Shown: positions 8,193-63,884 of the stretch, piece by piece | How the letters are laid out: every line of letters starts with the position of its first letter | Numbering within the stretch: position 1 is the first letter of the stretch | Assembly: GCA_023381555.1 (NCBI GenBank) | Contig: JAMCRV010000091.1 | Coordinates: 9,556-73,555, forward strand | Origin: Chloroflexota bacterium | GTDB taxonomy: Bacteria; Chloroflexota; UBA4733 | Length of the DNA: 64,000 nt | Direction of reading: 5' to 3' | Notes under the pieces: generated by a model | Databases searched by the model: none | Told to the model about the DNA's origin: nothing | The model's input: only the letters and a program-made list of their open reading frames with translations | Program-made: the position numbers and the translations under genes

Positions 8193-8272
8193 GCCTGCTG
8201 CTTCTCCTCAGCGCGAATCAACCACCACGTCACAACCGTGGCGAGTGTACCCGCAGAGCTAGCAGTGCGTCA

Positions 8273-10567
8273 TCACGCTGATCCATACCCACCCGACTGG
8301 ACAGTGGTGCTACTTCTCCACACTCTGAGCAGGGGCGCCACAAGGAGAACCGTGGCAATGGCAAGTGCCGTGAATGTGATCATGCCACCATAGAGCAGGA
8401 TTCTGGGCCGGTACGTCAAGGAGATGGTATGGCGTCCCGGCCCGATCTCCACACCAGATAACGCTCCATCAACCGGGAGCAACCGGGCCCGCCTCCCATC
8501 CACCGTGACGTGCCAGCCTGGGTAGTAAATCTGACTCCACACCAACAGCCCTTCGCCGGCGGTGGAAACCTCAGCGGTCAGATGTGTTGGGCTCGACTCG
8601 TGAACTTTCACCGTCTCATTACCAGGCTGTCCGAGAGGCAGCGGCAGTGGCGAATTGACTACCGCCATCTGGCCAACGTTACTCCGTCCGAGAATGCGCC
8701 ACACGTCTTGTCCGGAGCCAACCGCAACCTGATGCACGAGCCACGCCCGAGGCAGGCTGATCACTGGTGCCAGCCGGTAGAGGTGCAGTGGGCCGTCCGA
8801 GCCTAGAAGGGTCAGCGGCGCACCTGCAGGGAAGGTCCGCTTCGTCACGATATAGCGCACATTCAGTAGCATCTGACGCCGAGTGCCGTCGAGTAATCCT
8901 TGGGGCTGGGCGGCATTCATCGCGGCGAATGAGGAGAGCTCCAGAGGCGTGCTGCCGATCACGTCCTCGAGCCCGTAGATGAGGCCTTCATTGCCATCGG
9001 CAGGCAACGTTCCCTCAGTACTGACGCGAAAGGGACCATTCTTGCCGTGCTGCATCAGAGAGATAATCGTAAGCTCTGGATACGGTTGCAGATCTCCGGG
9101 TACCAATCCCCAGTAGCGATGCGCTGTAAAGAGCTCCACAATGGCGATCCCTATCAGGGCCACCAGTACGAACCGGCCGCGCCGCCCCAGAAGCATCCCG
9201 AGACCAATGATGAGGACGCTGATGATCACGAAGGCTGACAAACGGCGCACACCCAAGAGTGCTGCCTGTTGGGATGACTCACGGAGAATGGGCACTTTCG
9301 CCATCAGCTGCGCAAGAAAGAGGCCGGCCAGGACGAGAGCGGAGATGAGGAACAATGAGACGGACGTTCTGCTAGCGCTGGCCAGCAGCTCCCACAGGGC
9401 GCACATCCCGAGACCCGCAAGACAAGCAGCGGCAAAGGACACGAGGAGGATCGAGCGCTCCTGATCACGTACGAGGTTGAACCCTGGGAACACGTGATAC
9501 GCCACTGGATAGAGCGGTCCGTGTCCACCCAGGCTCATGAGCAGACCAAACGCACCAAGAATGACGAGCATTGGCCAGGGTCGCCAGTGCCAGGCGAAAA
9601 CTGCACCGAGACTCATAAGCACGACGGATGCCCCGACGTATGCCGGTGCAGCTGCTCCGAAACCGGAGTTGAGCACCGTCCCAAGTAGCTCATGCATCCT
9701 GAAACCGCCAGCCAGAAACGAGTACGGCTCTTTGTGACGGACCGTCAGAGGTACCATTTGTAGAGTCGGAAGCAGCTGGACCGCCCCCAGAGCGATACCA
9801 AGCGCAAGTCCTAACCCTGGTCTGGCGACGCTAGCTAGCTTGACACTCCACGGCCCCTTAGTGCGAAGAGAGCCAATGACAAGCCAGAGCGCTGCAGCAT
9901 AGCCTGTGTACAGCAAAGCCTGGGGATGACCACCGAGGATCGCGAGACCGAAACACAGTGCGAGCAGACCGAGAATCCAGGTAGCACTGGAATCCAATGA
10001 CAAGTCTACGAAGAGGAGGGTCCAAGGCAGCCAGGCTGAAACCTGGAGGATATCTGTATCCTGGAGAGGATAGGTCGTGAGATATCCACTCAGCTCGAAT
10101 GCGACAGCGGCCAAGGTGGCGCCAGCGAGGCGGGCGATCCACGGCAGTGATGAAGCGCGATCTCTGGTCAAGGCCAGAAGAAAGATCAGCGTGCCGGCTC
10201 CTGCGAATGCGATGTGAGCGAGTTCATCGACCACCAACATTCGCGGTGTGAGCAGCCGCTGCCCTCCAAGGAGGACCGCAAGGAGGAGGGTGGGTGGGTA
10301 GAAGCTATCGAATTGGATATCCGCGTCAGCTGGCTGGCCGGCATTGACGGCAGCCGCCCAGAGCGGGATGTGGCCGTGCTGATAGCTCGACACCACGAAG
10401 AAGTGCATCGGAAAGTGCACTTCTGAAAAGTCACCCAGGCGAATCGACCAACGTGCCGCAGTGTCTGGCGTCACAAGTGGCCAGAAGTACGTGACTGGCA
10501 AGGCACAAACCAGATTCACTGCCGCAAAGAAGACCAGCCACTTGACTACCCTGTGAGATCGCGGCAC
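8273..10567 (-). CDS. Large polytopic membrane protein, possibly a YfhO-like GT-C membrane glycosyltransferase.
   Basis: 764 aa. It has at least 12 predicted hydrophobic helices in the N-terminal two-thirds, a roughly 250-aa soluble C-terminal domain, and a final transmembrane helix. No catalytic motif was verified. Confidence 0.35.
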   Translation of the reverse strand: MPRSHRVVKWLVFFAAVNLVCALPVTYFWPLVTPDTAARWSIRLGDFSEVHFPMHFFVVSSYQHGHIPLWAAAVNAGQPADADIQFDSFYPPTLLLAVLLGGQRLLTPRMLVVDELAHIAFAGAGTLIFLLALTRDRASSLPWIARLAGATLAAVAFELSGYLTTYPLQDTDILQVSAWLPWTLLFVDLSLDSSATWILGLLALCFGLAILGGHPQALLYTGYAAALWLVIGSLRTKGPWSVKLASVARPGLGLALGIALGAVQLLPTLQMVPLTVRHKEPYSFLAGGFRMHELLGTVLNSGFGAAAPAYVGASVVLMSLGAVFAWHWRPWPMLVILGAFGLLMSLGGHGPLYPVAYHVFPGFNLVRDQERSILLVSFAAACLAGLGMCALWELLASASRTSVSLFLISALVLAGLFLAQLMAKVPILRESSQQAALLGVRRLSAFVIISVLIIGLGMLLGRRGRFVLVALIGIAIVELFTAHRYWGLVPGDLQPYPELTIISLMQHGKNGPFRVSTEGTLPADGNEGLIYGLEDVIGSTPLELSSFAAMNAAQPQGLLDGTRRQMLLNVRYIVTKRTFPAGAPLTLLGSDGPLHLYRLAPVISLPRAWLVHQVAVGSGQDVWRILGRSNVGQMAVVNSPLPLPLGQPGNETVKVHESSPTHLTAEVSTAGEGLLVWSQIYYPGWHVTVDGRRARLLPVDGALSGVEIGPGRHTISLTYRPRILLYGGMITFTALAIATVLLVAPLLRVWRSSTTVQSGGYGSA

Positions 10568-10661
10568 GTATCCTCCCAGTTTCCCTGGCTACTCACTAAT
10601 GTATGGTATGCTTACGGAAACTTACCGCGGCGTAGTTCAGCAGTGCTCGGAGGTCACACGA

Positions 10662-11021
10662 ATGATCACCATTACCCCGGAAGCAGCAGACAAGGTTCGA
10701 GAGCTTGCGTCTCGCGACGAGCGCCCAGACTTGGCGCTGCGGCTCTTCGTGACCAGCGGTGGGTGCTCGGGATTCAGTTATGGCATGACTCTCGATGACG
10801 AGATCATGGCAGACGATGACGTGAGCTCCGACCGTGGTGTGAAGATTGTTGTCGACTCAGACAGCGTGCCGTACGTCAATGGCTCTGAGATCCATTATGT
10901 GGAAAGCATGATGGGTGCTGGGTTCGTCGTGAACAATCCGAATGCGACGGGCTCCTGTGGGTGTGGTCAGTCCTTTCGCGTAGATGGTCAGAGCGGCCAG
11001 GCGCACAGCTGCGCTCACTAG
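10662..11021 (+). CDS. iscA: Fe-S cluster assembly accessory protein of the IscA/ErpA/HesB family.
   Basis: The three IscA cysteines are present, including CGCGQSF at the C-terminus. The start is MITITPEAADKV; the ORF track begins 21 codons upstream at 10599. Confidence 0.85.
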   Translation: MITITPEAADKVRELASRDERPDLALRLFVTSGGCSGFSYGMTLDDEIMADDDVSSDRGVKIVVDSDSVPYVNGSEIHYVESMMGAGFVVNNPNATGSCGCGQSFRVDGQSGQAHSCAH

Positions 11022-11044
11022 AGCCTTTCCAGCCTACTACTAAT

Positions 11045-11082
11045 GGGAGGAGGCGGATAACCGCTTCCTCCCGTTTTTTCTT
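11045..11082 (+). terminator. Rho-independent terminator after iscA.
   Basis: The sequence is GGGAGGAGGCGG-ATAA-CCGCTTCCTCCC followed by GTTTTTTCTT. This gives a 12-bp stem with one G-U pair and a T-tract. Confidence 0.75.
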
Positions 11083-11367
11083 GAGCAAGGTCCGCTGGCA
11101 GCGTGAGGTCTAAACTCCCTTTCCATCGAGGAGTGCTAGGACCTCCGGCGCCAGACTAGGGAGAACGACCTTGGCCGTTTGTTCTCCCGTCCCAATTCGT
11201 CCGAGCTCTTTCCCGAAGAGAGTAGAGTATTGATCGGAGTCCAGTGGGAAGACTGGTGGTCCAGATGTACGCACTTCGGAGCACTGGGGAAGACATCCAT
11301 GTGGGCCGGCGGGAGACCTGGCTGGCCTATAGATAGGGAGACGAGCTGGCAAAGGAGCGATTATACG

Positions 11368-12189
11368 ATGAAAGCAGGAGTTTGCTATGGTGTCATCGAC
11401 GAAGGGCATACCTTCGAAGAAAAGCTTGCAGCCGCCCACTCTTCCGGCTATGAAGGCGTCGAGCTGGCGCTCGGTATCGATCGCGCGGATCCACTCAGCT
11501 TGGGCCTGAACTCGGAATCACTCTTCGCAGTGCGCCGGACCGTGGAGCAAGCCCAGCTCGAGATACCCAGCGTAATGGGTGGTCCCGCGTTAGCGCAGAC
11601 ACCCCTCCTCAGCTTCGATCCAGAGGTCCGTCAGCGGTCTGTCAGGAACTATGCCCTCGCATTGGAGACGGTGGCAACCCTTGGAGCTTCGACCGTACTC
11701 ATGCATCCGGGTCAACTGCGCGCTGAAACCCGATACGACCAGGCGTGGGAATGGGTCGTCCAGGCCCTTCGTGACCTCATCCCAGCATGCGAGCGCACAG
11801 GTGTCAGCATTGGCCTGGAGAACGTGTGGAACAAGTTCTTGCTGTCTCCACGTGAGTTTGCACAACTGCTCGACGAGGTCAATCACCCGTTGATCGGCTG
11901 CTATCTCGATACGGCCAACATGCTGCTCTACGGCTACGCTGAGCAGTGGGTCGAAATCATCGGTCGGAGGATCAAGAAGGTACACGTCAAGGATTTCAAG
12001 CGTGAGCGTGGCGGAGGACGCTTCTGCCAGCTTCTAAGCGGTGACTGCAACTTTCCTCGCGTCATGGCTGAGCTCCGTGCGGTGAGGTATGACGACTATC
12101 TCACGAGCGAAGTCAGTCCATCTGAGCGCAGTGATGGTGAAACCATGCGAGATACAGCAGAGCGTATCCGCGAAATCACGTTGCTGTGA
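11368..12189 (+). CDS. Sugar phosphate isomerase/epimerase (xylose isomerase-like TIM barrel).
   Basis: A conserved AP-endonuclease-2/xylose-isomerase-like TIM-barrel pattern is present (GYEGVEL...VLMHPG...GLENVWN...YLDTANM). The start was chosen at MKAGVCYG; the ORF track begins at 11179. Confidence 0.6.
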   Translation: MKAGVCYGVIDEGHTFEEKLAAAHSSGYEGVELALGIDRADPLSLGLNSESLFAVRRTVEQAQLEIPSVMGGPALAQTPLLSFDPEVRQRSVRNYALALETVATLGASTVLMHPGQLRAETRYDQAWEWVVQALRDLIPACERTGVSIGLENVWNKFLLSPREFAQLLDEVNHPLIGCYLDTANMLLYGYAEQWVEIIGRRIKKVHVKDFKRERGGGRFCQLLSGDCNFPRVMAELRAVRYDDYLTSEVSPSERSDGETMRDTAERIREITLL

Positions 12190-12245
12190 CCCGCCGTGTG
12201 CCGTGTGTAGTTGAGTGTGGATGGTGATGTCCTGGTCGTCACTGC

Positions 12246-13142
12246 CTACTCAATACCGAAGAGACGCGCTGCCGTTCCAAAGAAGATTTGGTCTTGCTCC
12301 TCGGGTGTCAAGCCGATGGCGTTGAACGCATCCATCCAAGCGCTGAGCTCGCGACTGATGTGTGGGATACCGCAATCGCTTCCAAAACAAAGCTTGAGCG
12401 GGAGGATCTCCTTGCGTATCAGCCCGCGCTCGAGGATGTGGCGACGTACGACGCTGCCCCCCGAGATGTCGAAGGACACGTTACCGCGCCAGCGTGCCAC
12501 TGCTGTCGCTTCATCGTAGAACCCGTACCCCAGGTGGGCGCCGATAATGATGAGGTCAGGGAAGGCTTGGGCAATAGTGTCGAGCAAGGCCGGTCGTAGC
12601 CCATTGGCGCTGTAGGTCTTGCCGCGCCGGCGATCTTTCCACTGGCGCTCCCAATCGTTTGGGGGAAGAGGGTGTCGGGGTGGAAAGAGTAGCCAATCGA
12701 CCATGCCGCCAGCAATTCCCGTGTGAAACAAGCACACGAGGCCTTCCTCTTCGGCTGCCTGATAGATGGGAAAGTATTCAGCTGCGTCGTAGGGCCGGAG
12801 TGACGAATGAAACTTGAGCCCCACATATCCCTGAGTCTTGAGCTGGTGGATGAGCTCGGGTTCATCCTCATCGAGAACGACCCAGGCCATGGGTAGAAAG
12901 AGGTCAGGATAGCGGTCGCGGGCACGCAGCGGCGCCTCGCGATTCTGCCCTGGGGGAGAGAGCAAGGCGATCTTCTGGATGTTCAAGATGCCGGCCGTGT
13001 ACGCCAGCATATCGATCATGAACTCCTCAGCAAGCGCTGAACTGCCTCCTGGGCCCGAGCCGGGAAAGTGTACGTGCACATCAAAGACGCGTGGCGGAGC
13101 ATCTTTGATGTAGCGATTCGGATCGGGTCGGGGTACGGTCAC
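12246..13142 (-). CDS. Amidohydrolase-2 family metal-dependent hydrolase (TIM barrel).
   Basis: It has an FDVHVHFPG metal-binding start and an amidohydrolase_2-like HxH...H...D pattern. A probable GTG start at 13142 overlaps the metG stop (GTGA), which suggests translational coupling. Confidence 0.55.
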   Translation of the reverse strand: MTVPRPDPNRYIKDAPPRVFDVHVHFPGSGPGGSSALAEEFMIDMLAYTAGILNIQKIALLSPPGQNREAPLRARDRYPDLFLPMAWVVLDEDEPELIHQLKTQGYVGLKFHSSLRPYDAAEYFPIYQAAEEEGLVCLFHTGIAGGMVDWLLFPPRHPLPPNDWERQWKDRRRGKTYSANGLRPALLDTIAQAFPDLIIIGAHLGYGFYDEATAVARWRGNVSFDISGGSVVRRHILERGLIRKEILPLKLCFGSDCGIPHISRELSAWMDAFNAIGLTPEEQDQIFFGTAARLFGIE

Positions 13143-14815
13143 CGCGCTGATTCCTCTCCACTGTCCTCTACAATCTTTTGGAAGAGTGGCACTGGCTGAC
13201 CGAGTTGATGTCCCACACTCAACCGAGGTATCTCCCATTGCGGCTGCGTGCCTTTGACCTCAATCCCAAGCTGCCGTCGCAACTGCTCTGATGAGAATGG
13301 CAAGAACGGGGTCATCAGAGTAGAGAGTGCCGCAATCATCTGCACGCACACGTGCAGAGTGCTGCCCGTGCGCAGACGATCACTGCGAATGGTGTGCCAA
13401 GGAGCACACTCATCCAGGTAGCGATTGCCGCGGGCTGCGAGCTGCATGACGCTCCGCAAGCTGTCGCGAAACTGGCAGCGCGCGATCTGCCGCCCGACAT
13501 CGGCGAAGGTTGCCGGGATGGCATCGAGCGTGTCCTGGTCGAGTTTGTTCGTTCCCTCCAACGGCGGCACGATCCCGTCAAAGTGACGCTTCGTGAACGT
13601 GAGGACACGGTGTACGAAGTTGCCGTACGTCGCCACCATCTCATCGTTCGTCAGCCGGACGAAGTCTTCGTGCGAGAGGTCCGTATCGTGGGTCTCAGGC
13701 ATCATCGCTGTGAGCGCGTAGCGCACGGCATCGGCCTGGTACTTCGGTACGTACTCGTGTAAGGGCATCACCACCCCCCGGCTCTTCGACATCTTCGTCC
13801 CGCTCATAGTCATGTACTGATTCGCTGGGATGTCATAGGGAAGAACCAGACCGCCATATCCCATGAGGACTGCGGGCCACATGATCGTGTGGAAGAAGAT
13901 ATTGTCTTTTCCGAGAAAGTAGTAGGCACGCACCTCCGTGCTCTCCCAGAAGGGCTTCCAGGCGTCAGGTTCGCCTCGATTCTGCGCCCATTCAACGCTG
14001 GCTGACAGGTAGCCGATGAAGGCATCAAACCACACGTAAATTCGCTTCTGCTCATAACCCGGCAATGGGATCGGCACACCCCATTCGATATCGCGGGTGA
14101 CCGGCCGGTCCTTGAGCCCCTCCCGCAATAGACCGGTGGCGAAGCCATACACCTCCGGCCTCCAATACGTCTTCGGAGCGACCCAGCTCGTCAGGCGGCT
14201 CGTAAATGCCGACAGCCGCAAATAGAAGTGCTCTGTTTCGCGAAACTCGGGGACTGCCCCCGACAACCTACTGTGTAGCTCGATGAGATCAGCCGGATCG
14301 AGAACTCGACCGCAGTTGTCACACTGATCGCCGCGCGCCTCTGTATAGCCGCAATGAGGGCAGGTCCCTTCGACATAGCGATCGGGCAAGAACCGCGACA
14401 CGACTGGGTCATAGGGTGCGGTCGTCGTCGCCTTGTAGATGTAGTCGCGTTCCAGCAGTCGCAGGAACATGTCTTGAACCACGCGGTGGTGAGTAGGAGT
14501 CTCTGTGTGGGTGAAGAGATCAAAGCTGATGCCGAGACTGTGGAGGTCTTCCAGAAAGAAGCGATGGTAGCGCTCGGCGATGACGGCGGGGCTCACGCCT
14601 TCACGATCAGCGACGAGCGTGATAGGGGTTCCGTGCGTGTCGCTACCTGAGACCATGAGAACTTGGCTCCCGCGCATGCGATGGAAGCGCGCAAAGATGT
14701 CCGGCGCCAGCATCGCCCCGACGACGTGGCCCAAGTGCAAGCGCCCGTTGGCATAGGGCCAAGCCACGCCGACAAAAATCGTCTCGGTCACAGGTTCCTC
14801 CCGCAGTGGCTGCAT
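13139..14815 (-). CDS. metG: Methionyl-tRNA synthetase.
   Basis: A HIGH-region motif is present (PYANGRLHLGH), the zinc knuckle is CPHCGY...CDNCG, and the KMSKS motif is present. Confidence 0.95.
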   Translation of the reverse strand: MQPLREEPVTETIFVGVAWPYANGRLHLGHVVGAMLAPDIFARFHRMRGSQVLMVSGSDTHGTPITLVADREGVSPAVIAERYHRFFLEDLHSLGISFDLFTHTETPTHHRVVQDMFLRLLERDYIYKATTTAPYDPVVSRFLPDRYVEGTCPHCGYTEARGDQCDNCGRVLDPADLIELHSRLSGAVPEFRETEHFYLRLSAFTSRLTSWVAPKTYWRPEVYGFATGLLREGLKDRPVTRDIEWGVPIPLPGYEQKRIYVWFDAFIGYLSASVEWAQNRGEPDAWKPFWESTEVRAYYFLGKDNIFFHTIMWPAVLMGYGGLVLPYDIPANQYMTMSGTKMSKSRGVVMPLHEYVPKYQADAVRYALTAMMPETHDTDLSHEDFVRLTNDEMVATYGNFVHRVLTFTKRHFDGIVPPLEGTNKLDQDTLDAIPATFADVGRQIARCQFRDSLRSVMQLAARGNRYLDECAPWHTIRSDRLRTGSTLHVCVQMIAALSTLMTPFLPFSSEQLRRQLGIEVKGTQPQWEIPRLSVGHQLGQPVPLFQKIVEDSGEESAR

Positions 14816-14882
14816 CTGGCGCTCGCTTCACGAACGCCACAGGGGGAAGGGTACCACGCGGTATACTCGGCCCAGCTTCAGG

Positions 14883-14967
14883 GCCGGAGTGGCGAAATGG
14901 CAGACGCAGCGGACTTAAAATCCGAGGCCGATGAGGCGTGCGGGTTCGACTCCCGCCTCCGGCACCA
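14883..14967 (+). tRNA. tRNA-Leu (anticodon TAA), type II with a long variable arm.
   Basis: The acceptor stem is GCCGGAG/CTCCGGC, the anticodon loop is CTTAAAA, and the T-arm is GGGTTCGACTCCC. The 3' CCA is encoded. Position 27:43 is a G:A mismatch. Confidence 0.85.
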
Positions 14968-15532
14968 GAGGGAATCACCCAGCGGCGCTACGCTACCGGG
15001 AAGTGAAACAACTCGCCGGGGCGATCGCCCAGCCGCCATTGAGCCTCACTGGCAACTGGCTCTGCCGGAGATCGTGCGAGCGCTGAACGAGCAGTTAGCA
15101 GCGTTGCATCGTGGCTGCTATCGAACAGCGGTTCACGTGGCTGGACGCTGGCACGGCGGCGTTTGGAGCGGAAAGAGCGTCTTGCGTGTGACTTGACAGC
15201 TCATTCTGGACAAGTTTGCCATTTTGCGTTGGACAGATCCCTCTGGAAGCAAGGAGACTGTATGAGGAGGGTTAGCGCGAAAATTGCCATGAAGCTTTGG
15301 ACAGAGGAATTTGCCGCTTGGGGCTAGACAAAGTCCAATCGGTTGTGACAAAGCACAGGCTGCTGCGCGTCTGGTCACTGCGGACATCACACACATCCTG
15401 AGCAGTCCGCTGCTGCGCGCCCTCGCCACGTCTGTGGTCGGGTCGGCATCGTCTTCCTCCGGCAAGAGTTTTGACGAGCCGACCCGACCGCCCGGCCACT
15501 CCCCAAATGGCCAAAGTCGAGCTGAGATTCGG

Positions 15533-57445: not shown

Positions 57446-57917
57446 GCGCGCGCCAGCTTGCACAGCTACACGAGTGTGCGCCGGCGCAGTGCTTGCACAC
57501 CAATGGGCAGCGTCACGGTTACAGTAATGGTGAGTACAGCTAGCTTCCGGCTGCCAAGATACGTAGTCGCGGATCGCTCACCGGTGACGGTGCAGTGGCT
57601 CTGTACGTAGCGTGCAGCGGTGCGCCTTAGCTGACGCGGCCTTACCCGATGGATCTCACGGTGCCCTGAGCTTTCCGGGTTCACGCTGCTCTGACGAGTA
57701 CGAGAAGGAAGGGCCGGGAGAGCAGGAAGCAAAGGAGAATCCGCATGTCGCCACATCTCATCATTAGAGCGTTTCGCCCCCTCACTCTTTCAATCGGTCA
57801 TCGTGAGGCTGTGTTGGCACGAACAGTGCTCTCTGTCGAACAATGGGGTAGCGCATGGCTGTCTGGACGATACCGCTCACTCAGTCGTACGTTAATACGG
57901 GGCAGGGAGAGCAATAA

Positions 57918-58355
57918 ATGAGATGGTGTAGCGCACCTGCTGATCGCGTCCTCGGTGATGTCGACCTGCCTAGCCCTAGGCCCTGTCCAAGGCGCACGCG
58001 GGAACGCCCAATCAGGACGGGCAAGCCGCTCATTGGTGAGGAAGGCGAGGTGGTGCTCAGGGCTGTGACGTACTCGTACCATGCGCTCACACGGAGCTGC
58101 CAGAGAGCGCTCACTCCCGACCAAATTGCCTACGTGCTCATCTACGGCACTCCGGTGTTTCGCGCAGGAGCGCTCTTCTACGTGCTGCGCCGGCGTGACA
58201 TCACGCCCGGAGATCTGCGTTCCGATGAAGTTGCCAAGCTCGAAGGTGCCGTCGTCTTAGTCAGCGAAGGTGTCATTACGACGGTGTATCGCAACCGTCG
58301 CGCGCTGCGGAGCATCCGCAAGAAGCAGAAGTATTTCCGAGGCTCAGCGGCGTAA
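57918..58355 (+). CDS. Hypothetical protein, DUF4258-like.
   Basis: The C-terminal ~90 aa (VVLRAVTYSYHALTRS...TPDQIAYVL...VVLVSEGVITTVYRNR) resemble DUF4258 small proteins. The start is uncertain. It is convergent with the helicase-nuclease gene, with a 7-bp gap. Confidence 0.3.
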   Translation: MRWCSAPADRVLGDVDLPSPRPCPRRTRERPIRTGKPLIGEEGEVVLRAVTYSYHALTRSCQRALTPDQIAYVLIYGTPVFRAGALFYVLRRRDITPGDLRSDEVAKLEGAVVLVSEGVITTVYRNRRALRSIRKKQKYFRGSAA

Positions 58356-58362
58356 CCCTGCG

Positions 58363-61300
58363 CTACTGTGTACTGGCCTCATTCGCCGTAACAGCACTCT
58401 CCACTGCGCCTGACGCTCCGGGACGCTTGGGACAGATGAAGAGCTGTGCGCACTCCGAGCAGTGCTGCCCTGGGCTTGGCAGGAACCTCTTCGAGGCAAT
58501 CATCTGTGCTGTGGAATCGAAGGTGTTGAGTCGTGCTTGTTCATGGCGCTTCTGCGGTGGCCACACTTCAATCAATATGTTGTCGAGTGGGTAGAAAAGC
58601 TCTACTCGAGCTGTCTCATCCGCCGCATACTGACTGAGAGCGAGGCGGTAGAGCGACAACCGGTCTTCACGTGGATGCTCGTCCGACCTCCTGCCGAACC
58701 GGATGCGTCGCAACACAAGGCCGCTGCCGGTCCGTTTGCTCTCGTCGAAGTCTACGCGGATGACCGAGTGCGGGAGGTCAACCCACAGGGAGTGGCACCA
58801 TACCTGGAACGCTCCGTCACGTTGCTCGCGATCGTAGAGGCTCCGCAGCATCGTCTCCGCCCGTTGACGGTAGTACTGCTCATAGGTAGACCCAACAGGC
58901 CCGCCAGCCGCCCACTTGTCCTCAAATTCCGAAAGCGTGGCCTTCCAGGAAGGTAGCACACCCGCGGCTATGCTGTTCCGTAGCCATTCTCCCGTCTGGG
59001 ACACAACGCTCGTGTACCGGCGCTGCGGGTTCTGCTGAGAACCACTGTCCAGCAACAATACGCGTTGGTAGTAGAACTGGAGCGGGCAGCGCAGATAGTG
59101 CTCGATGGCATAGGCAGAGTGCCGTGGTTTGTCGCTCTTGATGGCCGGTAGCGAAGGCTCTACGATGGCCGCGCCGCTCATCCAGCTATCATTAGCCCTC
59201 TCAGCCGTGCCAAGTCGTTGAGGATGGACGCCAAGCCGTTCGCAATACGGAAGCACGAGGTCGACAAAGGGCGAAGGCTTCTCCTCACGTTTGAGATAGC
59301 GCTTCGACCAGCTCAGCACGAGCACGTCGCGCGCCCGGCTTATCGCTACGAAGAAGAGAAAGGCTTCATCGGAGGTGTCAGCGCTGGGTATCGCCGAGAG
59401 CAAGCCAGGCGGTGGTGGGCAGGGTTCTCCCTTACTTGACGCTGGAAATCGGCCCTTCGTCAGGTGAGGCACCGCGACTACGGGGAATTCGAGTCCCTTA
59501 CTCGCGTGCACCGTGAGGATGCGGATCGCGTCCACTCTTTCCAAGCTGGGAGGAAGCCCGATGCGCCCTTCGCCCATCTGGAAGAGGCGCCGTGCGTAGT
59601 CGACGAACGTCAAGCGACCGAATCCTGGCACACCCGCTGTCTTGCGCACCTGGAAGCTGCGCGCGAGCAGCACGAGCTCTCCGAGCGTCACAAGCTCAAG
59701 CTGCGCTTCAATGCCACCATCACGCAACAGTGTCTGGAGATGTGCCGGAGCAGAGAATAGGTACCGGGCCAATCCTTTGGCTGGGTCGCCATCGCGAAAG
59801 CACGTGGCCAGAAGCTCTCCAAGACGCTGGAACTGGATGGCGTCATCTGGTGCAATCCCTGCGATCTCGCCTGCTCTCCTAAGCGCGTCAGGAAAAGGGA
59901 TTCCGCAGAGACGCGCGTTGGTCACGAGGGTATGAGCCGCCTCCGGATGCAGCGAAGGATCTACAAGGCGCGCGAGACCGAAGAGATCACCGCCGTCACC
60001 TTCCTCCGTCAAGGACAGGAGCGACAGGAGCTCTTTCACTTCTGGGCGGGTGAAGAGATTTCCCAGATAGGCTACGGGCACGCCACACTGCTTCAACGCC
60101 TGGGCGATAGCTTCCGCCTGGGAGTTCGTCCGGCACAGCACGGCCATATCGCGGAAAGGGCGCCCCGCCGTGTGCTCATCGTGCAGCGCTGCTGCCAGGG
60201 CAGCATGCTCACTCGCGCCATCGCTACTCTCAAACAGCCGCACCGCAGGCCTCATTGCCCTTGCCAGGTCGCCGCGCTCACTCCCCCACGGCGCTATCGG
60301 ATCGTCCGGGAGAATCTGATTGGCAACGTCTGAGAAGAGACCGACCAGTGGTGCAACGGACCGGTAGTTGCGGGCGAGGTGAATACGGCTTGCTTCCCGG
60401 AAGTCTTGCTCGAACTGACCGACGTTGGCCGGAGAGGCCCCACGGAACTGGTAGATCGACTGGCGCAAGTCTCCTACCGCCCACAATCCACGGCCTTCGC
60501 TCGCCAGTAGCTTGAGCAGGTAGGCACTCGCTCGGTTGACATCCTGATACTCATCCACAAGCACGTGCTGGTACTGCGCCTGAAGCTCATTCCGGACATC
60601 CTCGTACTCTTCGAGCAGATGAACCACCTTCACCAGCAAGTCACCGTAGTCCACCATAGTCAAGCTGTTGAGAAGAGCGTCGTAGTAAGCATAGAAATCC
60701 GCCACCTCCATAGCCTTGGCTGCCGCCAGCTGTTCCGCGTCCTTGTGCGCCGCATCCCACTGCCGCTCCGCAAGCCGGCGATAGTCCCGAGGCGTCTTGA
60801 GCTCATCCTTGGCACGCGACACCGCTCTCAGAAGGTCCGGTAGATAGAGCCCTGGCTCTCCCGGATGCGCATAGTGCTGCAGCGGCAACGAGGCGATTCG
60901 CTCGTCAAGCATGAGGTAGGCATCGACCGTGTCGATGATGCGCACATCCGGCCGCAGACCCGCTCGCAGGCTGTAGCGCCGTAGGAGCTCGAGGGAAAAG
61001 GAATGAAACGTCTCTATAGTGAGACCCGTAGCCGCATCGCCGGCGGCGGAAGCAAGGCGATCGCGCAGCTCCTGTGCCGCCTTGTTCGAGAACGTCAGCA
61101 CGAGAATACTGCGAGCTGGAACGTGCTGCTCACGGAGCAAATACTGCACCCTACCACTCAAGGCACGCGTCTTTCCCGTGCCCGGACCTGCTGCGACAAG
61201 GAGGGCCCGGCCCTTCCAACGAGCGGCTTGATCTTGCGAGAGGTCTAGAGTGACGGGTTGAGCTTCCACGGCGGCAGCTACCGGCTCATTACCGGGAGCC

Positions 61301-61863
61301 TGTTCAACAGGAGGCTCAGCCGTCAACACCCCAGCAATGAGCTGATTGATGACGGCGCTTTCGGGCAGCTCCAATCGCTCTACGAGTTGAGCCAGGGTTG
61401 CGCCTTCCCGAATGAGCGCTCGGAGCAGCAACTGCGGGGCCAGAAGCTCAGCAGCGAAGACGCTCGCCTCCATCTCAGTGCGCTGTCGTGGATTGTAGGT
61501 GGCGAGCTTACTCGTCGAGGATAGCGAAGACTCGTCTGGCAGCGCTTCGACATCACCATCACCACAGTTAGTGGCTGCACCGTGCTGGTGACCGAGCACG
61601 AAGTGACCGATTTCGTGAGCGACGGCAAAGTTCTGCGCCGCCAGGCTGAGCGACCTATCGACGGAGATCCATTCGTCAACCAGTCTAGCCCGCGCACCGT
61701 CGAGCGCCGGGTCGTCTGGACCGAGGGGCAATAAGCCGAGGTCCGTCTGGGCAAGCGCGGCAGCGACCACGAGCGAGCCCCAGGTACAGCCATCGTCGTC
61801 AGAGCAGCAAATGTTTGTGCGGAAGGTCTGGGCCCGCAGACGCACCTGTGCCCAGGTATCCAC
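58363..61863 (-). CDS. Three-domain fusion: M78-family (ImmA/IrrE-like) zinc metallopeptidase, UvrD/Rep-type SF1 helicase, and Cas4/AddB-like PD-(D/E)XK Fe-S nuclease.
   Basis: 1166 aa. The N-terminus has HEXXH (AVAHEIGHFVLGH) plus a downstream Glu (EASVFAAELLAP), which is the ImmA/IrrE pattern. The helicase carries motif I AAGPGTGKT, motif II LVDEYQD, motif III DLRQSIYQFRGA, ARNYRS, VLCRTN and motif V/VI TVHASKGLEFPVV. The C-terminus has YAIEHYLRCPLQFYYQR (the Cas4-like N-terminal Cys), VDFDE, and a terminal C-x2-C-x5-C (HCSECAQLFIC). The GTG start is 3 nt after the upstream gene's stop. Confidence 0.8.
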   Translation of the reverse strand: MDTWAQVRLRAQTFRTNICCSDDDGCTWGSLVVAAALAQTDLGLLPLGPDDPALDGARARLVDEWISVDRSLSLAAQNFAVAHEIGHFVLGHQHGAATNCGDGDVEALPDESSLSSTSKLATYNPRQRTEMEASVFAAELLAPQLLLRALIREGATLAQLVERLELPESAVINQLIAGVLTAEPPVEQAPGNEPVAAAVEAQPVTLDLSQDQAARWKGRALLVAAGPGTGKTRALSGRVQYLLREQHVPARSILVLTFSNKAAQELRDRLASAAGDAATGLTIETFHSFSLELLRRYSLRAGLRPDVRIIDTVDAYLMLDERIASLPLQHYAHPGEPGLYLPDLLRAVSRAKDELKTPRDYRRLAERQWDAAHKDAEQLAAAKAMEVADFYAYYDALLNSLTMVDYGDLLVKVVHLLEEYEDVRNELQAQYQHVLVDEYQDVNRASAYLLKLLASEGRGLWAVGDLRQSIYQFRGASPANVGQFEQDFREASRIHLARNYRSVAPLVGLFSDVANQILPDDPIAPWGSERGDLARAMRPAVRLFESSDGASEHAALAAALHDEHTAGRPFRDMAVLCRTNSQAEAIAQALKQCGVPVAYLGNLFTRPEVKELLSLLSLTEEGDGGDLFGLARLVDPSLHPEAAHTLVTNARLCGIPFPDALRRAGEIAGIAPDDAIQFQRLGELLATCFRDGDPAKGLARYLFSAPAHLQTLLRDGGIEAQLELVTLGELVLLARSFQVRKTAGVPGFGRLTFVDYARRLFQMGEGRIGLPPSLERVDAIRILTVHASKGLEFPVVAVPHLTKGRFPASSKGEPCPPPPGLLSAIPSADTSDEAFLFFVAISRARDVLVLSWSKRYLKREEKPSPFVDLVLPYCERLGVHPQRLGTAERANDSWMSGAAIVEPSLPAIKSDKPRHSAYAIEHYLRCPLQFYYQRVLLLDSGSQQNPQRRYTSVVSQTGEWLRNSIAAGVLPSWKATLSEFEDKWAAGGPVGSTYEQYYRQRAETMLRSLYDREQRDGAFQVWCHSLWVDLPHSVIRVDFDESKRTGSGLVLRRIRFGRRSDEHPREDRLSLYRLALSQYAADETARVELFYPLDNILIEVWPPQKRHEQARLNTFDSTAQMIASKRFLPSPGQHCSECAQLFICPKRPGASGAVESAVTANEASTQ

Positions 61864-61866
61864 TCG

Positions 61867-62484
61867 TCACTCCGCCGCGGCAGTATTGATAGCGGACCAG
61901 CGTTCCTCCGCCAGCCAGACTCTCATCTCCGGAGTTGTCTTCGCCCGTTCGAGCGCAGCGTCGAAGGACTCCTGCAGGGGCTCAATGGGGACGGTGCGGG
62001 CGTAGTGCGCCCCTTGCGGCTGCGGCTGTTGGAGATAAGCGATGACCTGGGCGACGCTCAAGTCAAGAACGTCCGCCAAGCGACTAATGAGCTTGACCGG
62101 CAATGAGCCGAGACTGAGCCCGCGCATATCTATCTTGCCAAAAACCTCGAGGGGTATCCCTATCGCACCGGCTATGGCACTCTTGCACTTTCCGAGCTCT
62201 CGCCCGCGCGCAGAAAGCGTCTTGGGCATCCTCCGGAGGGCCTGTGCCATGGTTTCTGTCAGGATGCGCTCGAGTTCAGGATACTGATCGTTCTCCAGAA
62301 CATCCTCGTCGGCATCGACCGTCGCTTCGTAGAGCTCGGCAAATTCTAGGAGCCCACTTGCATGTTGCGGATACTGCTCGAGAAGGTCGAAGAGGGTGGG
62401 ACCTGTGCGCCGCTCTCGCCCCTCGACGTAGAGCATGAGAACGCTGTCCAACTCAGCTTCGGAACGCTCGGGGGTAGTCATCAT
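61867..62484 (-). CDS. XRE-family helix-turn-helix protein, the putative repressor partner of the peptidase fusion.
   Basis: The start was chosen at MMTTPE; its ATG overlaps the sigma-factor TGA (ATGA). A central HTH is present (LSARGRELGKCKSAIAGAIGIPLEVFGKI...LSVAQVIAYL). It lies directly upstream of the M78 peptidase domain, mirroring ImmR-ImmA/DdrO-IrrE gene pairs. Confidence 0.6.
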   Translation of the reverse strand: MMTTPERSEAELDSVLMLYVEGRERRTGPTLFDLLEQYPQHASGLLEFAELYEATVDADEDVLENDQYPELERILTETMAQALRRMPKTLSARGRELGKCKSAIAGAIGIPLEVFGKIDMRGLSLGSLPVKLISRLADVLDLSVAQVIAYLQQPQPQGAHYARTVPIEPLQESFDAALERAKTTPEMRVWLAEERWSAINTAAAE

Positions 62485-63338
62485 CGGGAGTACTCCTCTT
62501 GTGAGCCAAGTAACTGCCTGAGCCACCTCAGCGCCCTGTTCCGGATGTTTCTCACCGTGCGATCGGTCACGCCTAGCACACTGCATACCGTCCTCTCAGA
62601 TGGATCCTGCGAGGTGACCTTGAGCTTCTCCTCGAACAGCAAGATGAGGACCTGTTGCTCTTGATACGGCAGCCTCAGCAAGGCATCTCGTAGCTTTGCG
62701 CTCTCCACACTGGCAAGAACCTGAGCGTCAGGCGTGGGAGCCGGATCAACGGGCTCCCACTCCCTGTCGTCGCCCTGGCTGTTTGTGCTGTTGAACCTCT
62801 CTTCGTGCTGCTGGCGGTTGTCGCGCGCAGAACCGGCCCCGCGCGCCGCGGAGATCACGATTCGCCTGAGTGCTTCCTGAAAGTTTGCTTCCCAAAACTC
62901 CCGTTGGGGATCCAGTATATGTTGCCAGAGCGTGACGCTCACTTTTTGAAGGAAGTCGCTGCTCTCCGGAGAGTGACGCCACCTATCCACAGCTCTCGCG
63001 TACCGGAGAATGAGGGGTTTGGTCCGCAGCACGAGCAGCTCCGCTGCCTGGTCCCTTTCCTCTTGATTGCCGTGCCGCACGAAGTAGCGCACTGCCATCA
63101 CGAGCACCTCAGACGCGACGTAGCGTTGACTCCCTTGGTTTGCCTCGCGGAGGTAGTCCCAGAACGCACGGGTATGCACTGGCGGCAGCTTGCGAAGCTG
63201 CTCCGCAACGGTCTCGTTGAGCGTGTACTGGCGTGTCGCACGCACATCCAGCGTGTGAAGACTTCCTTGGCGTCCCGCTGTTGCCATCCCCGAACTCCCA
63301 CCCAGGACCAGTAGCTTCTCCTGACGGGAGTGTGGCAT
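62481..63338 (-). CDS. Sigma-70-family RNA polymerase sigma factor (ECF-like/divergent), first gene of the three-gene operon.
   Basis: The C-terminal region 4 HTH is clear (LPYQEQQVLILLFEEKLKVTSQDPSERTVCSVLGVTDRTVRNIRNRALRWLRQ). A region-2-like helical segment lies upstream (YVASEVLVMAVRYFVRHG). Confidence 0.65.
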   Translation of the reverse strand: MPHSRQEKLLVLGGSSGMATAGRQGSLHTLDVRATRQYTLNETVAEQLRKLPPVHTRAFWDYLREANQGSQRYVASEVLVMAVRYFVRHGNQEERDQAAELLVLRTKPLILRYARAVDRWRHSPESSDFLQKVSVTLWQHILDPQREFWEANFQEALRRIVISAARGAGSARDNRQQHEERFNSTNSQGDDREWEPVDPAPTPDAQVLASVESAKLRDALLRLPYQEQQVLILLFEEKLKVTSQDPSERTVCSVLGVTDRTVRNIRNRALRWLRQLLGSQEEYSR

Positions 63339-63452
63339 GAATACAGCACTTGAGTGAAATTGACCGCCGGCGCATGCCAGAGAACCACCGTGTTGCCCCT
63401 CTCACCATGCCTACTCGCCGCAGCCAGCTCCAGGCGGAAGTACCGCTGGCAG

Positions 63453-63495
63453 TTGTCAGCCGCAGAATCGTGACAATATAGTGTCTTGAAGACAC
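63453..63495 (+). promoter_or_regulatory. Putative sigma-70 promoter (TTGTCA, 18 nt spacer, TATAGT) with an overlapping palindrome GTGTCTT-G-AAGACAC.
   Basis: A -35/-10 pair with 18-nt spacing is present. A perfect 7-bp-arm inverted repeat lies immediately downstream at 63481-63495, in the divergent region between DUF488 and the sigma operon. Confidence 0.35.
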
Positions 63496-63515: not shown

Positions 63516-63884
63516 ATGGTGAAGACAAAGCGCGTCTACGACCTCCCAGTAAAGGACGATGGCTATCGCGTGCTCATCGAGAGACTCTGGCCCCGCGGCC
63601 TGTCGAAGGACCGCGCCCAGATTGATGAGTGGTGCAAGGATGTCGCACCATCGACAGCGCTACGCACTTGGTATGCACACGACCCCACCAAGTGGGAAGA
63701 GTTCAGCCACCGCTACCGTGCCGAGCTCGCCCAGGCACTGGCACAACGTGCCCTGACTACTCTCGTCCAGAGGGCCCGCCAAGAGCACGTCACGCTCCTC
63801 TTTTCAGCACGCAATCCTGAGCTGACCAGCGCACGTATCCTTGCTGAAGAAATCGAGCAGCGGCTTGCGTTGCCCTCAACATAG
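63516..63884 (+). CDS. DUF488-family protein.
   Basis: The conserved DUF488 core is present (YDLPVKDDGYRVLIERLWPRGLSKDRAQIDEWCKDVAPSTALRTWYAHDPTKWEEF). The start was chosen at MVKTKRVYD, with a GGAGGTGGG ribosome-binding site. Confidence 0.7.
   Translation: MVKTKRVYDLPVKDDGYRVLIERLWPRGLSKDRAQIDEWCKDVAPSTALRTWYAHDPTKWEEFSHRYRAELAQALAQRALTTLVQRARQEHVTLLFSARNPELTSARILAEEIEQRLALPST

Follow-up and report, generated by a model that had tools for sequence, protein, structure and literature searches.

A small helix-turn-helix protein encoded between a sigma-like factor and an M78 peptidase-helicase-nuclease fusion in Chloroflexota: a candidate inhibitory substrate

What can a small helix-turn-helix (HTH) protein do when its gene is squeezed between those of a sigma factor and a DNA helicase? 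Here, we deal with a stretch of 64,000 nucleotides (nt) from a Chloroflexota bacterium (assembly GCA_023381555.1, contig JAMCRV010000091.1, positions 9,556 to 73,555 of the forward strand), called the window hereafter, in which positions 61867–62484 of the minus strand encode such a protein of 205 amino acids (aa). As seen both in the list of open reading frames (ORFs) and by direct reading of the sequence, this middle gene belongs to a tightly packed minus-strand trio: a gene for a 285-aa sigma-70/extracytoplasmic function (ECF)-like factor with an N-terminal extension of ~95 aa (62481–63338), the middle gene itself, and a gene for a 1166-aa fusion of a CapP/IrrE-like M78 peptidase, a UvrD-type superfamily 1 (SF1) helicase and a PD-(D/E)XK nuclease (58363–61863). 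By analogy with characterized relatives of the peptidase, we lean to the view that the middle protein is an inhibitory substrate of the fused CapP-like enzyme, sequestration of the sigma factor being its preferred mode of action. We hold this view because the catalytic and switch residues of the peptidase are conserved, its small partner is strictly co-inherited with it, all characterized peptidases of this type act on an adjacent XRE-HTH protein, and a conserved flexible linker follows the HTH domain of the partner.

The co-inheritance is evident when GTDB species genomes are scanned with an alignment of the fusion. The scan yielded 80 loci, and in 22 of them the match includes the M78 region (our locus handles, L001 and so on, are given below where loci have to be told apart). 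Searched with a profile hidden Markov model of the middle protein, each of the 22 M78-bearing loci has a match in the ORF next to the fusion on its upstream side, and the plain-UvrD loci among the 80 scanned have none. In 21 of the 22, a sigma homologue is the next gene upstream of the middle one. The trio spans five phyla, its hosts being members of Chloroflexota, Acidobacteriota, Verrucomicrobiota, and Alpha-, Beta- and Gammaproteobacteria.

The junctions of the genes in the window are as the first-pass annotation had described them, with an ATGA overlap upstream of an ORF of about 205 aa and a 3-nt gap downstream. The TGA of the sigma gene (62483–62481) is overlapped by the first ATG of the middle ORF (62484–62482) to make ATGA, AGGAG is located 8 nt 5′ of this ATG, and the TGA of the middle ORF (61869–61867) is followed by CGA and then by the GTG start of the fusion gene (61863). 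The same 4-nt overlap between sigma and middle genes is present in at least 12 of the 22 related loci, and the spacing between middle and fusion genes is 10 nt or less in all 22. The product is identical to a "hypothetical protein" annotated by NCBI in a Chloroflexi metagenome-assembled genome. A 239-aa version of the middle ORF starting at 62586 finds no support; the start at 62484 is preferred because the homologues align from there. It had also been stated that such coupling implies stoichiometric co-expression: the co-expression part stands, and stoichiometry does not necessarily follow from it.

The fused peptidase and its small partner

The fusion is a member of a large family, with 120 full-length homologues of ~1130 aa that have a common architecture. 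Pfam places Peptidase_M78 at aa 63–174 (PF06114, 7.5e-08), the UvrD helicase at aa 209–854 (PF00580, 3.3e-62; PF13361, 1.4e-31) and the PD-(D/E)XK nuclease at aa 916–1145 (PF12705). On the minus strand, the peptidase together with a small HTH subdomain (aa ~40 to 175/180) corresponds to 61339–61746, with HEIGH at aa 83–87 (61603–61617), C100, D104 and Glu130/132; the UvrD/PcrA-like helicase core (aa ~205–860), with Walker A GPGTGKT and DEYQD, to 59284–61251; and the Cas4/AddB-type nuclease (aa ~916–1145), with invariant C926, C1135, C1138, C1144 and D1040, to 58429–59118. PADLOC matches only the helicase core, to its GajB and RTasHel models, and gives no match for the sigma and middle proteins; beyond this generic UvrD core, no partner proteins of listed defense systems such as Gabija or DRT are present. 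Four conserved cysteines are typical of AddB/Cas4-type nucleases, and C926, C1135, C1138 and C1144 presumably hold an Fe-S cluster, an assignment taken over from the AddB and Cas4 families.

Is the peptidase part of such a large protein still an enzyme? H83, E84, H87, E130/E132, GPGTGKT, DEYQD and the four cysteines are all invariant in a 21-member alignment of the fusion, and H83, E84, H87, E130 and E132 are so again in a second set of 17 sequences. When the N-terminal 200 residues are used as a profile, the best match in the Protein Data Bank (PDB) is CapP (7t5t, E=1.9e-9), and then comes IrrE (3dte, 2.3e-7). In CapP, the residues in question are H97, the cysteine-switch residue C114, and D117/D118 (PMC13228613). 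Since the alignment to Thauera CapP (...HELGH-x12-C-SDAD) is ungapped through HE.GH-x12-C-x-D-x-D, with C100 at H83+17 followed by D102 and D104, C100 and D104 are taken as counterparts of C114 and D118 of CapP, and both are conserved in at least 90% of the aligned fusion sequences. Thus, the neighbor described earlier as a fused peptidase can be assigned to the M78 enzymes of the CapP/IrrE type by its invariant HExxH and Glu ligands and its cysteine-switch loop, and the maintenance of this catalytic set and loop across phyla argues for a regulated, active protease. It is to be noted that the GAF domain, which provides the groove for single-stranded DNA (ssDNA) in CapP and IrrE, is missing: the helicase begins at aa ~205, straight after the peptidase and HTH subdomain.

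The middle protein is far more difficult to recognize. The 205-aa sequence alone gives no match in Pfam even at E≤10, the gathering threshold of HTH_3/XRE not being reached, and none in NCBIfam, PADLOC or a phmmer search of the PDB; a k-mer search for homologues returned only the protein itself. An exhaustive HMMER search collected 160 cluster representatives (E≤1e-3), nearly all of ~190–230 aa, with an identity of ~30% along their entire length. An alignment of 61 sequences was used for structure prediction and one of 167 sequences for column conservation. AlphaFold was uninformative with the single sequence (pLDDT, its predicted local confidence score, 47), and gave a model of pLDDT 87.5 with the 61-sequence alignment. 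The model consists of helices at aa 5–25, 31–37, 39–59 and 69–84, a five-helix unit at 90–152, a non-helical segment at 153–173, and helices at 174–180 and 185–204. Foldseek relates it to the N-terminal domain (NTD) of CapH at a template modeling (TM) score of 0.79 (root mean square deviation, rmsd, 1.3 Å), to SinR at 0.73 (rmsd 2.0 Å) and to the DdrO NTD at 0.68, with further matches to 434 repressor/Cro and C.AhdI. A profile of the family matches 3kxa, the CapH NTD, SinR and 434 repressor in the PDB, with no sequence similarity to the C-terminal domains of CapH or DdrO, and between 7 and 13 of the 61 family members match HTH_3, HTH_31, HTH_26 or Xre-like-HTH. Therefore the label of an XRE-HTH protein is borne out at the level of family and fold only, Pfam being blind on this sequence.

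Four parts can be distinguished on the minus strand. An acidic helical domain (aa 1–85, 62230–62484; net charge −13) carries the conserved pattern L..W..RYPQxA..L..FA, and its profile finds in the PDB and Pfam nothing other than designed helical repeats and noise, that is, no known family and no anti-sigma signal. Next comes the XRE/Cro-C1-type five-helix HTH domain (aa 88–152, 62029–62223), supported by profile, Pfam, Foldseek and model, with a net charge of +4 (family median +2). It is followed by a conserved non-helical linker, the candidate cleavage region (aa 153–174, 61963–62028), and by C-terminal helices with conserved F174, A177 and W190 (aa 174–204, 61873–61965). The long N-terminal region (aa 1–87) and the C-terminal extension (aa 153–205) that had been noticed from the sequence are thus real, the HTH lying at aa ~88–152. 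The whole protein is cytoplasmic, has no transmembrane segment, and is strongly acidic (−12). Its recognition helix, P-L-E-V-F-G-K-I-D-M-R (family [GSP]x[DAS][LVI][LVI]xKL[DE]xR), is mostly aliphatic or acidic and largely hydrophobic, and K117 is the sole well-conserved basic residue in it.

The linker is the most conserved non-helical segment of the protein. In 167 sequences it follows the motif PPxLAx[YF][KR][AS][DE]xAP....QE[SD]F just after the HTH, with P154 and P155, then Y (59%) or F (20%), K (32%) or R (32%), A (62%) or S (28%), P166 (94%) and F174 (91%). The window protein reads Q-P-Q-P-Q-G-A-H160-Y161-A162-R-T-V-P166...F174, a variant common to other Chloroflexi-type members (F-Y-H-A, F-H-Y-A). 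What do characterized M78 peptidases cleave? CapP cuts CapH at F82|R83 only after ssDNA has opened its cysteine switch (PMC13228613), IrrE cuts DdrO at L106|R107 with stimulation by ssDNA, and ImmA cuts ImmR at F95|M96 (PMC12828697, PMC10904395). The aromatic-basic dipeptide of the linker resembles these scissile sites, and may be their equivalent. That the middle protein would be a substrate of the fused peptidase, as proposed in the first-pass annotation, is thus well supported by comparison. Its assignment to the ImmR/DdrO-type repressors, made in the same place, appears doubtful in view of the acidity of the protein, its hydrophobic recognition helix, the coupling to a sigma gene, and a variant locus (L006) described below.

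Promoters, cargo and neighboring genes

The setting of the middle gene is much richer than the first reading of the sequence had recognized, including sigma-type promoters and, in relatives, cargo operons of the Bil and Bub types. The 285-aa protein encoded upstream matches TIGR02937 (sigma70-ECF) at aa 98–277 with 57.7 bits against a cutoff of 42.9, and the Pfam matches to Sigma70_r4 and r4_2 are weak and below cutoffs. Its aa 1–95 form an N-terminal extension without family assignment, for which a pro-sequence or a docking site are candidates.

What follows the trio in other genomes? Of the 22 genome loci, 18 have an operon for ubiquitin-like conjugation that starts on the same strand 40–135 nt behind the trio, as do three of five further loci, so that the module is co-directional with Bil or Bub operons in 21 loci. 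BilABCD is found after the trio in L002, L004, L005, L008, L012, L014, L021 and L046, and in the further loci L082 and L085, and a multiubiquitin/E1/DUF6527 operon (Type II Bub, "6E.2") in L003, L007, L009, L010, L011, L013, L016, L017, L018 and L053, and in the further locus L081. No such operon stands behind the trio in the window, L001, L083 and L084, and no defense-island or compositional anomaly was seen in the window. The middle protein is also encoded on 73 plasmids, 45 of them from Acinetobacter, the others from Rhizobium, Agrobacterium and further genera; genomes of E. coli showed no near match to the enterobacterial version. In one case among large Acinetobacter plasmids (L081, pAS435-1 of Acinetobacter soli, 8228–15433), the module and a Bub-type operon lie between insertion sequence (IS) elements and a mer operon. 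The fusion gene of this locus is absent from the gene table of the plasmid, its longest ORF being 895 aa, and it may be a pseudogene or interrupted.

The gaps before the Bil and Bub operons (20 loci) share an ECF-like bipartite motif, TT(T/A)CCGG-N16 (15–17)-CGATT(A/G). With a leave-one-out position weight matrix (PWM), the other best site falls in front of the sigma gene (−69 to −104) in L002, L004, L008, L053, L082 and L084, that is, in Bil-type and Chloroflexi-like loci. In ten Bub-type loci (L003, L007, L009, L010, L011, L016, L017, L018, L020 and L081) it falls within the sigma coding sequence (+553 to +640), ~200 nt before the middle gene. There, the motif is spelled by codons for [FY]-R...A-I, with TTC/TAC, CGG/CGA, GCG and ATT kept, and the internal motif appears to be under selection at the DNA level because ATT is retained even where it makes up 7–13% of Ile codons. 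A motif in this place implies that transcription of the middle and fusion genes may start within the sigma gene, in dependence on the sigma factor. In L082 (17406, 3392) and L084 (8617, minus strand), the motif also precedes genes for ARPP-1 (PF20208), and in L082 it further precedes an uncharacterized four-gene operon ending in an AAA_12-type helicase; these copies suggest that the cargo of the sigma factor may be interchangeable.

In the window, TTCCGS-N16-CGAGTA has just two matches in 64 kb, both exact, where shuffled sequences give an expectation of 0.01. One (TTCCGC-N16-CGAGTA, 63412–63439, minus strand) is 74–101 nt upstream of the ATG of the sigma gene, and the other (TTCCGG-N16-CGAGTA, 57673–57700, plus strand) points at a convergent DUF4258-like gene; as the pattern was partly defined from the former site, only the latter is an independent observation. 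A generic PWM from distant taxa does not rank the window's own promoter highly, and the lineage-specific −10 element CGAGTA is needed to find it. As a sequence motif, then, a putative cognate bipartite promoter is located before the sigma operon and its candidate regulon. Between the −10 element and the ribosome-binding site (RBS), most cargo leaders (L003, L005, L008, L009, L010, L011, L017, L021, L081 and L085) have a short GC-rich palindrome or hairpin of variable sequence, for which a 5′ stem-loop in RNA or a co-evolving operator are candidates.

The convergent DUF4258-like gene (58050–58355, plus strand; 101 aa in the call and naming of NCBI, the longest ORF starting at 57918) is a candidate for sigma-dependent cargo, and the module of the window stands alone with this small gene. 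Its Pfam match to DUF4258 is weak (E=0.056). The convergent pairing is kept in another locus (L086), where identities to the window proteins are 47% for the fusion, 37% for the middle protein and 72% for the DUF4258-like protein. The leader of the gene holds an ORF of 58 aa (57745–57921) with a strong RBS. This ORF is ATGA-coupled to one of 145 aa; the two are probably not a real pair, as homologues keep only the C-terminal ~95 aa and NCBI places the start at 58050. On the other side of the trio, a divergent gene for a DUF488 (DUF488-N3i) protein (63516–63884, plus strand) lies behind a sigma-70-like promoter, TTGTCA-18-TATAGT (63453–63495). A perfect 7-1-7 palindrome, GTGTCTTcAAGACAC (63481–63495), overlaps this promoter, and a near-repeat of it, TGAAGACA(C/A)AG, is found 33 nt downstream. 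As a candidate operator for the HTH protein this palindrome was rejected, since its position coincides in part with the −10 element of the DUF488 promoter, and the second window promoter has no copy of it.

One locus deserves separate description. In L006 (3564–9699), the middle protein is 385 aa long and has an N-terminal zf-HC2 (ZAS) zinc finger (HLERCTRC, scoring 23.1 bits where the cutoff is 22.2) and an extra middle region ahead of the homologous HTH, linker and C-terminal part. Beyond region 4, its sigma factor of 357 aa is not homologous to that of the window. Because a zf-HC2 domain and a different sigma factor occur together here, the N-terminal domain is seen to change together with the sigma factor. 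An apparently truncated relative (P0208) lies beside an IS66 transposase, on a contig that an IS66 element disrupts.

Proposed switch and rival explanations

How might the three proteins work together? The sigma-like factor would recognize its own type of promoter, TT(T/A)CCG(G/C)-N16-CGA(T/G)TA, located before the sigma operon and the convergent DUF4258-like gene in the window and before BilABCD or Bub operons in relatives. The off state would be maintained by the middle protein, most likely as an anti-sigma factor whose acidic N-terminal domain binds the sigma factor, and the peptidase would recognize the CapH-like part of this protein, that is, the XRE HTH, the linker and the C-terminal helices. 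The UvrD helicase and the Cas4-type nuclease would act on DNA ends, or on DNA that is damaged or foreign, and the ssDNA made by them might release the cysteine switch, of the type seen in CapP, in the fused M78 domain, the helicase-nuclease standing in for the GAF groove. The peptidase would then cut the linker after the HTH, around H160-Y161-A162 (consensus [YF]-[KR]-[AS]), and the sigma factor, once freed, would transcribe the module and its cargo. Of all this, the order and coupling of the genes, the identities of the domains, the catalytic residues, the co-occurrence throughout the family, and the promoter motif with its positions are observed, whereas the cleavage and its site, the binding of the sigma factor and the activation by ssDNA are what we infer. 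Taken as a whole, and quite tentatively, the trio might be a self-contained and horizontally mobile sensor of infection or DNA damage, of a kind not described before, in which a CapP-type peptidase, fused to an AddA/Cas4-like helicase-nuclease and switched on by it, cuts a cytoplasmic anti-sigma factor that carries a CapH-like degron, and a private sigma factor, once released, fires orthogonal promoters of interchangeable defense cargo (Bil, Bub, ARPP-1 and DUF4258-like).

An anti-sigma role fits the middle protein at least as well as binding to an operator. The coupling of its gene to that of the sigma factor, the acidity of the protein and of its N-terminal domain, the aliphatic/acidic recognition helix, and the domain swap in L006 all point in this direction, and no operator common to the two window promoters is found. 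Several observations weigh against the proposed switch. No family of anti-sigma domains (ASD/ZAS, e.g., zf-HC2) matches the window protein and 45 relatives, and the swap to an anti-sigma domain is known from one locus. The mildly basic HTH domain is compatible with DNA binding, and the short palindromes in cargo leaders speak against an anti-sigma role. The H-Y-A of the window makes the putative cleavage site less canonical than [YF]-[KR]-[AS]. As the GAF domain is absent, activation would have to differ from that of CapP and IrrE. In the window itself, tblastn detected no remnants of Bil or Bub genes, and ~350 nt separate the motif at 57673–57700 from the start of the DUF4258-like gene.

The same mildly basic HTH and leader palindromes are what one would expect of a dimeric XRE repressor of the classical kind, such as ImmR, DdrO and CapH. 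Such a repressor would sit at operators of the module and its cargo until removed by M78 cleavage, the sigma factor only supplying promoter recognition, and the XRE fold of the middle protein, with the N-terminal domains of CapH and DdrO among its best structural matches, is as expected for it; furthermore, the characterized partners of M78 peptidases are all DNA-binding repressors (PMC13228613, PMC12828697). However, the recognition helix offers few base-reading side chains, the protein as a whole is strongly acidic (−12), the leader palindromes differ in sequence between loci and the two window promoters have none in common, and the N-terminal domain is swapped with the sigma factor in L006. 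The palindrome at 63481–63495, which might be counted in favor of a repressor, overlaps the divergent DUF488 promoter and not that of the module. We regard a classical repressor as rather unlikely, and keep it as the main rival explanation.

Less probable again is that the middle protein is not cleaved at all. It might associate stoichiometrically with the helicase-nuclease, as a partner or an inhibitor, and serve as an adaptor or antitoxin-like subunit in the manner of Xre-COG2856 pairs, the M78 domain might only bind it, or the substrate of the M78 domain might be found elsewhere, in the ~95-aa extension of the sigma factor or in a phage protein. Precedents are available: no cleavage is detectable when Rir inhibits Crh (PMC12828697), pairs of COG2856 and Xre proteins commonly figure in lists of toxin-antitoxin-like modules (PMC8649781), and the unexplained extension of the sigma factor would leave room for processing of a pro-sigma. 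Against these stand the HExxH/Glu residues and the loop of the cysteine switch, which vary little or not at all between phyla; CapP and IrrE, the closest solved relatives, both of which cleave an adjacent HTH partner; and the conserved unstructured linker, which is what a protease substrate would need. Finally, mere incidental adjacency, with an unrelated small regulator between sigma and helicase genes, is effectively refuted, its probability being negligible, because the trio co-occurs in 22/22 (middle) and 21/22 (sigma) loci, its order with overlapping or near-abutting genes recurring from Chloroflexota to Gammaproteobacteria and on the 73 plasmids.

If sequestration of the sigma factor and its relief by the fused peptidase are true, this would be the first case in which a DNA-processing motor directly drives the proteolysis of an anti-sigma factor, and the module would be a general on-switch for ubiquitin-like immunity in bacteria. 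The biological role of Bub is unknown (10.1101/2024.11.21.623953), and what triggers the Bil and Bub operons is an open question; the module in front of these operons in 18 of the 22 loci makes their triggering directly testable, and suggests DNA-end processing rather than diffusible ssDNA as the signal. It would also give a function to ~160 clusters of "hypothetical" 200-aa proteins, and the module offers a compact, host-independent cassette for inducible expression.

Relation to known systems

In the literature we found no description of a fusion of CapP with UvrD and a nuclease, of the family of ~200-aa partners or of the promoter motif, subscription-only papers and supplementary tables being outside our search. 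To which known systems is the trio then related? The closest is CapH+CapP. The M78 HExxH, Glu residues and cysteine-switch loop are shared and identically spaced, no PDB entry matches better than CapP, an adjacent XRE-HTH partner has a known or candidate aromatic|basic site in its C-terminal part, and both systems are linked to Bil and Bub (6E.2) operons. CapH+CapP adjoins antiphage signaling systems based on cyclic oligonucleotides (CBASS), defense island systems associated with restriction-modification (DISARM), Bil operons (15% of Type II operons) and Bub operons (31% of 544 operons), almost always divergent from its cargo, and 24 CBASS systems that have a sigma-70-family factor in addition to capH and capP were mentioned in passing (Lau et al., 2022, 10.1101/2022.04.27.489752). 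On the other hand, the window fusion (of a ~1150-aa type) has a UvrD helicase and a Cas4-type nuclease in place of the GAF domain of CapP, and its partner has an extra acidic N-terminal domain of ~85 aa with the HTH in a central position, while the HTH of CapH is N-terminal. The trio is also co-directional with its cargo, which lies behind an ECF-type promoter and not, as in CapH/CapP, behind an operator for the repressor.

In the IrrE/PprI+DdrO and ImmA+ImmR pairs, too, an M78 (COG2856) peptidase cleaves a neighboring XRE protein on the C-terminal side of its HTH, and IrrE, the second-best PDB match of the fusion N-terminus, is stimulated by ssDNA. IrrE does not have the cysteine switch that the fusion has; ImmA, like the fusion, has no GAF domain. 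Neither pair includes a sigma factor or a fusion to a helicase-nuclease, and DdrO and ImmR are small dimers with N-terminal HTH domains.

The motor and nuclease of the fusion resemble those of AddAB, AdnAB, RecBCD and Cas4, namely an SF1 UvrD-like motor and a PD-(D/E)XK nuclease with four conserved cysteines. Unlike these, the fusion is one chain that has a regulatory peptidase at its N-terminus and no partner subunit, it is found on plasmids and beside defense operons, and no role in repair is evident for it.

From the side of transcription, the trio is comparable to ECF sigma/anti-sigma pairs such as RseA-sigmaE, RsiV-sigmaV and those with ZAS domains. The sigma gene is followed by a coupled gene for a small putative inhibitor, the −35 and −10 elements of the presumably autoregulated promoter are separated by a 16-nt spacer, release would be proteolytic, and the variant in L006 has a bona fide zf-HC2 anti-sigma domain. 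In contrast, the window protein is cytoplasmic without a recognizable anti-sigma domain, and its protease would be an M78 peptidase on a DNA helicase-nuclease, not a site-1/site-2 or Clp protease. Because the GAF domain is missing, the module is co-directional with its cargo, and no anti-sigma domain can be recognized, plain membership in either class is rejected: we see in the trio a probable CapH/CapP-like switch combined with a sigma/anti-sigma switch.

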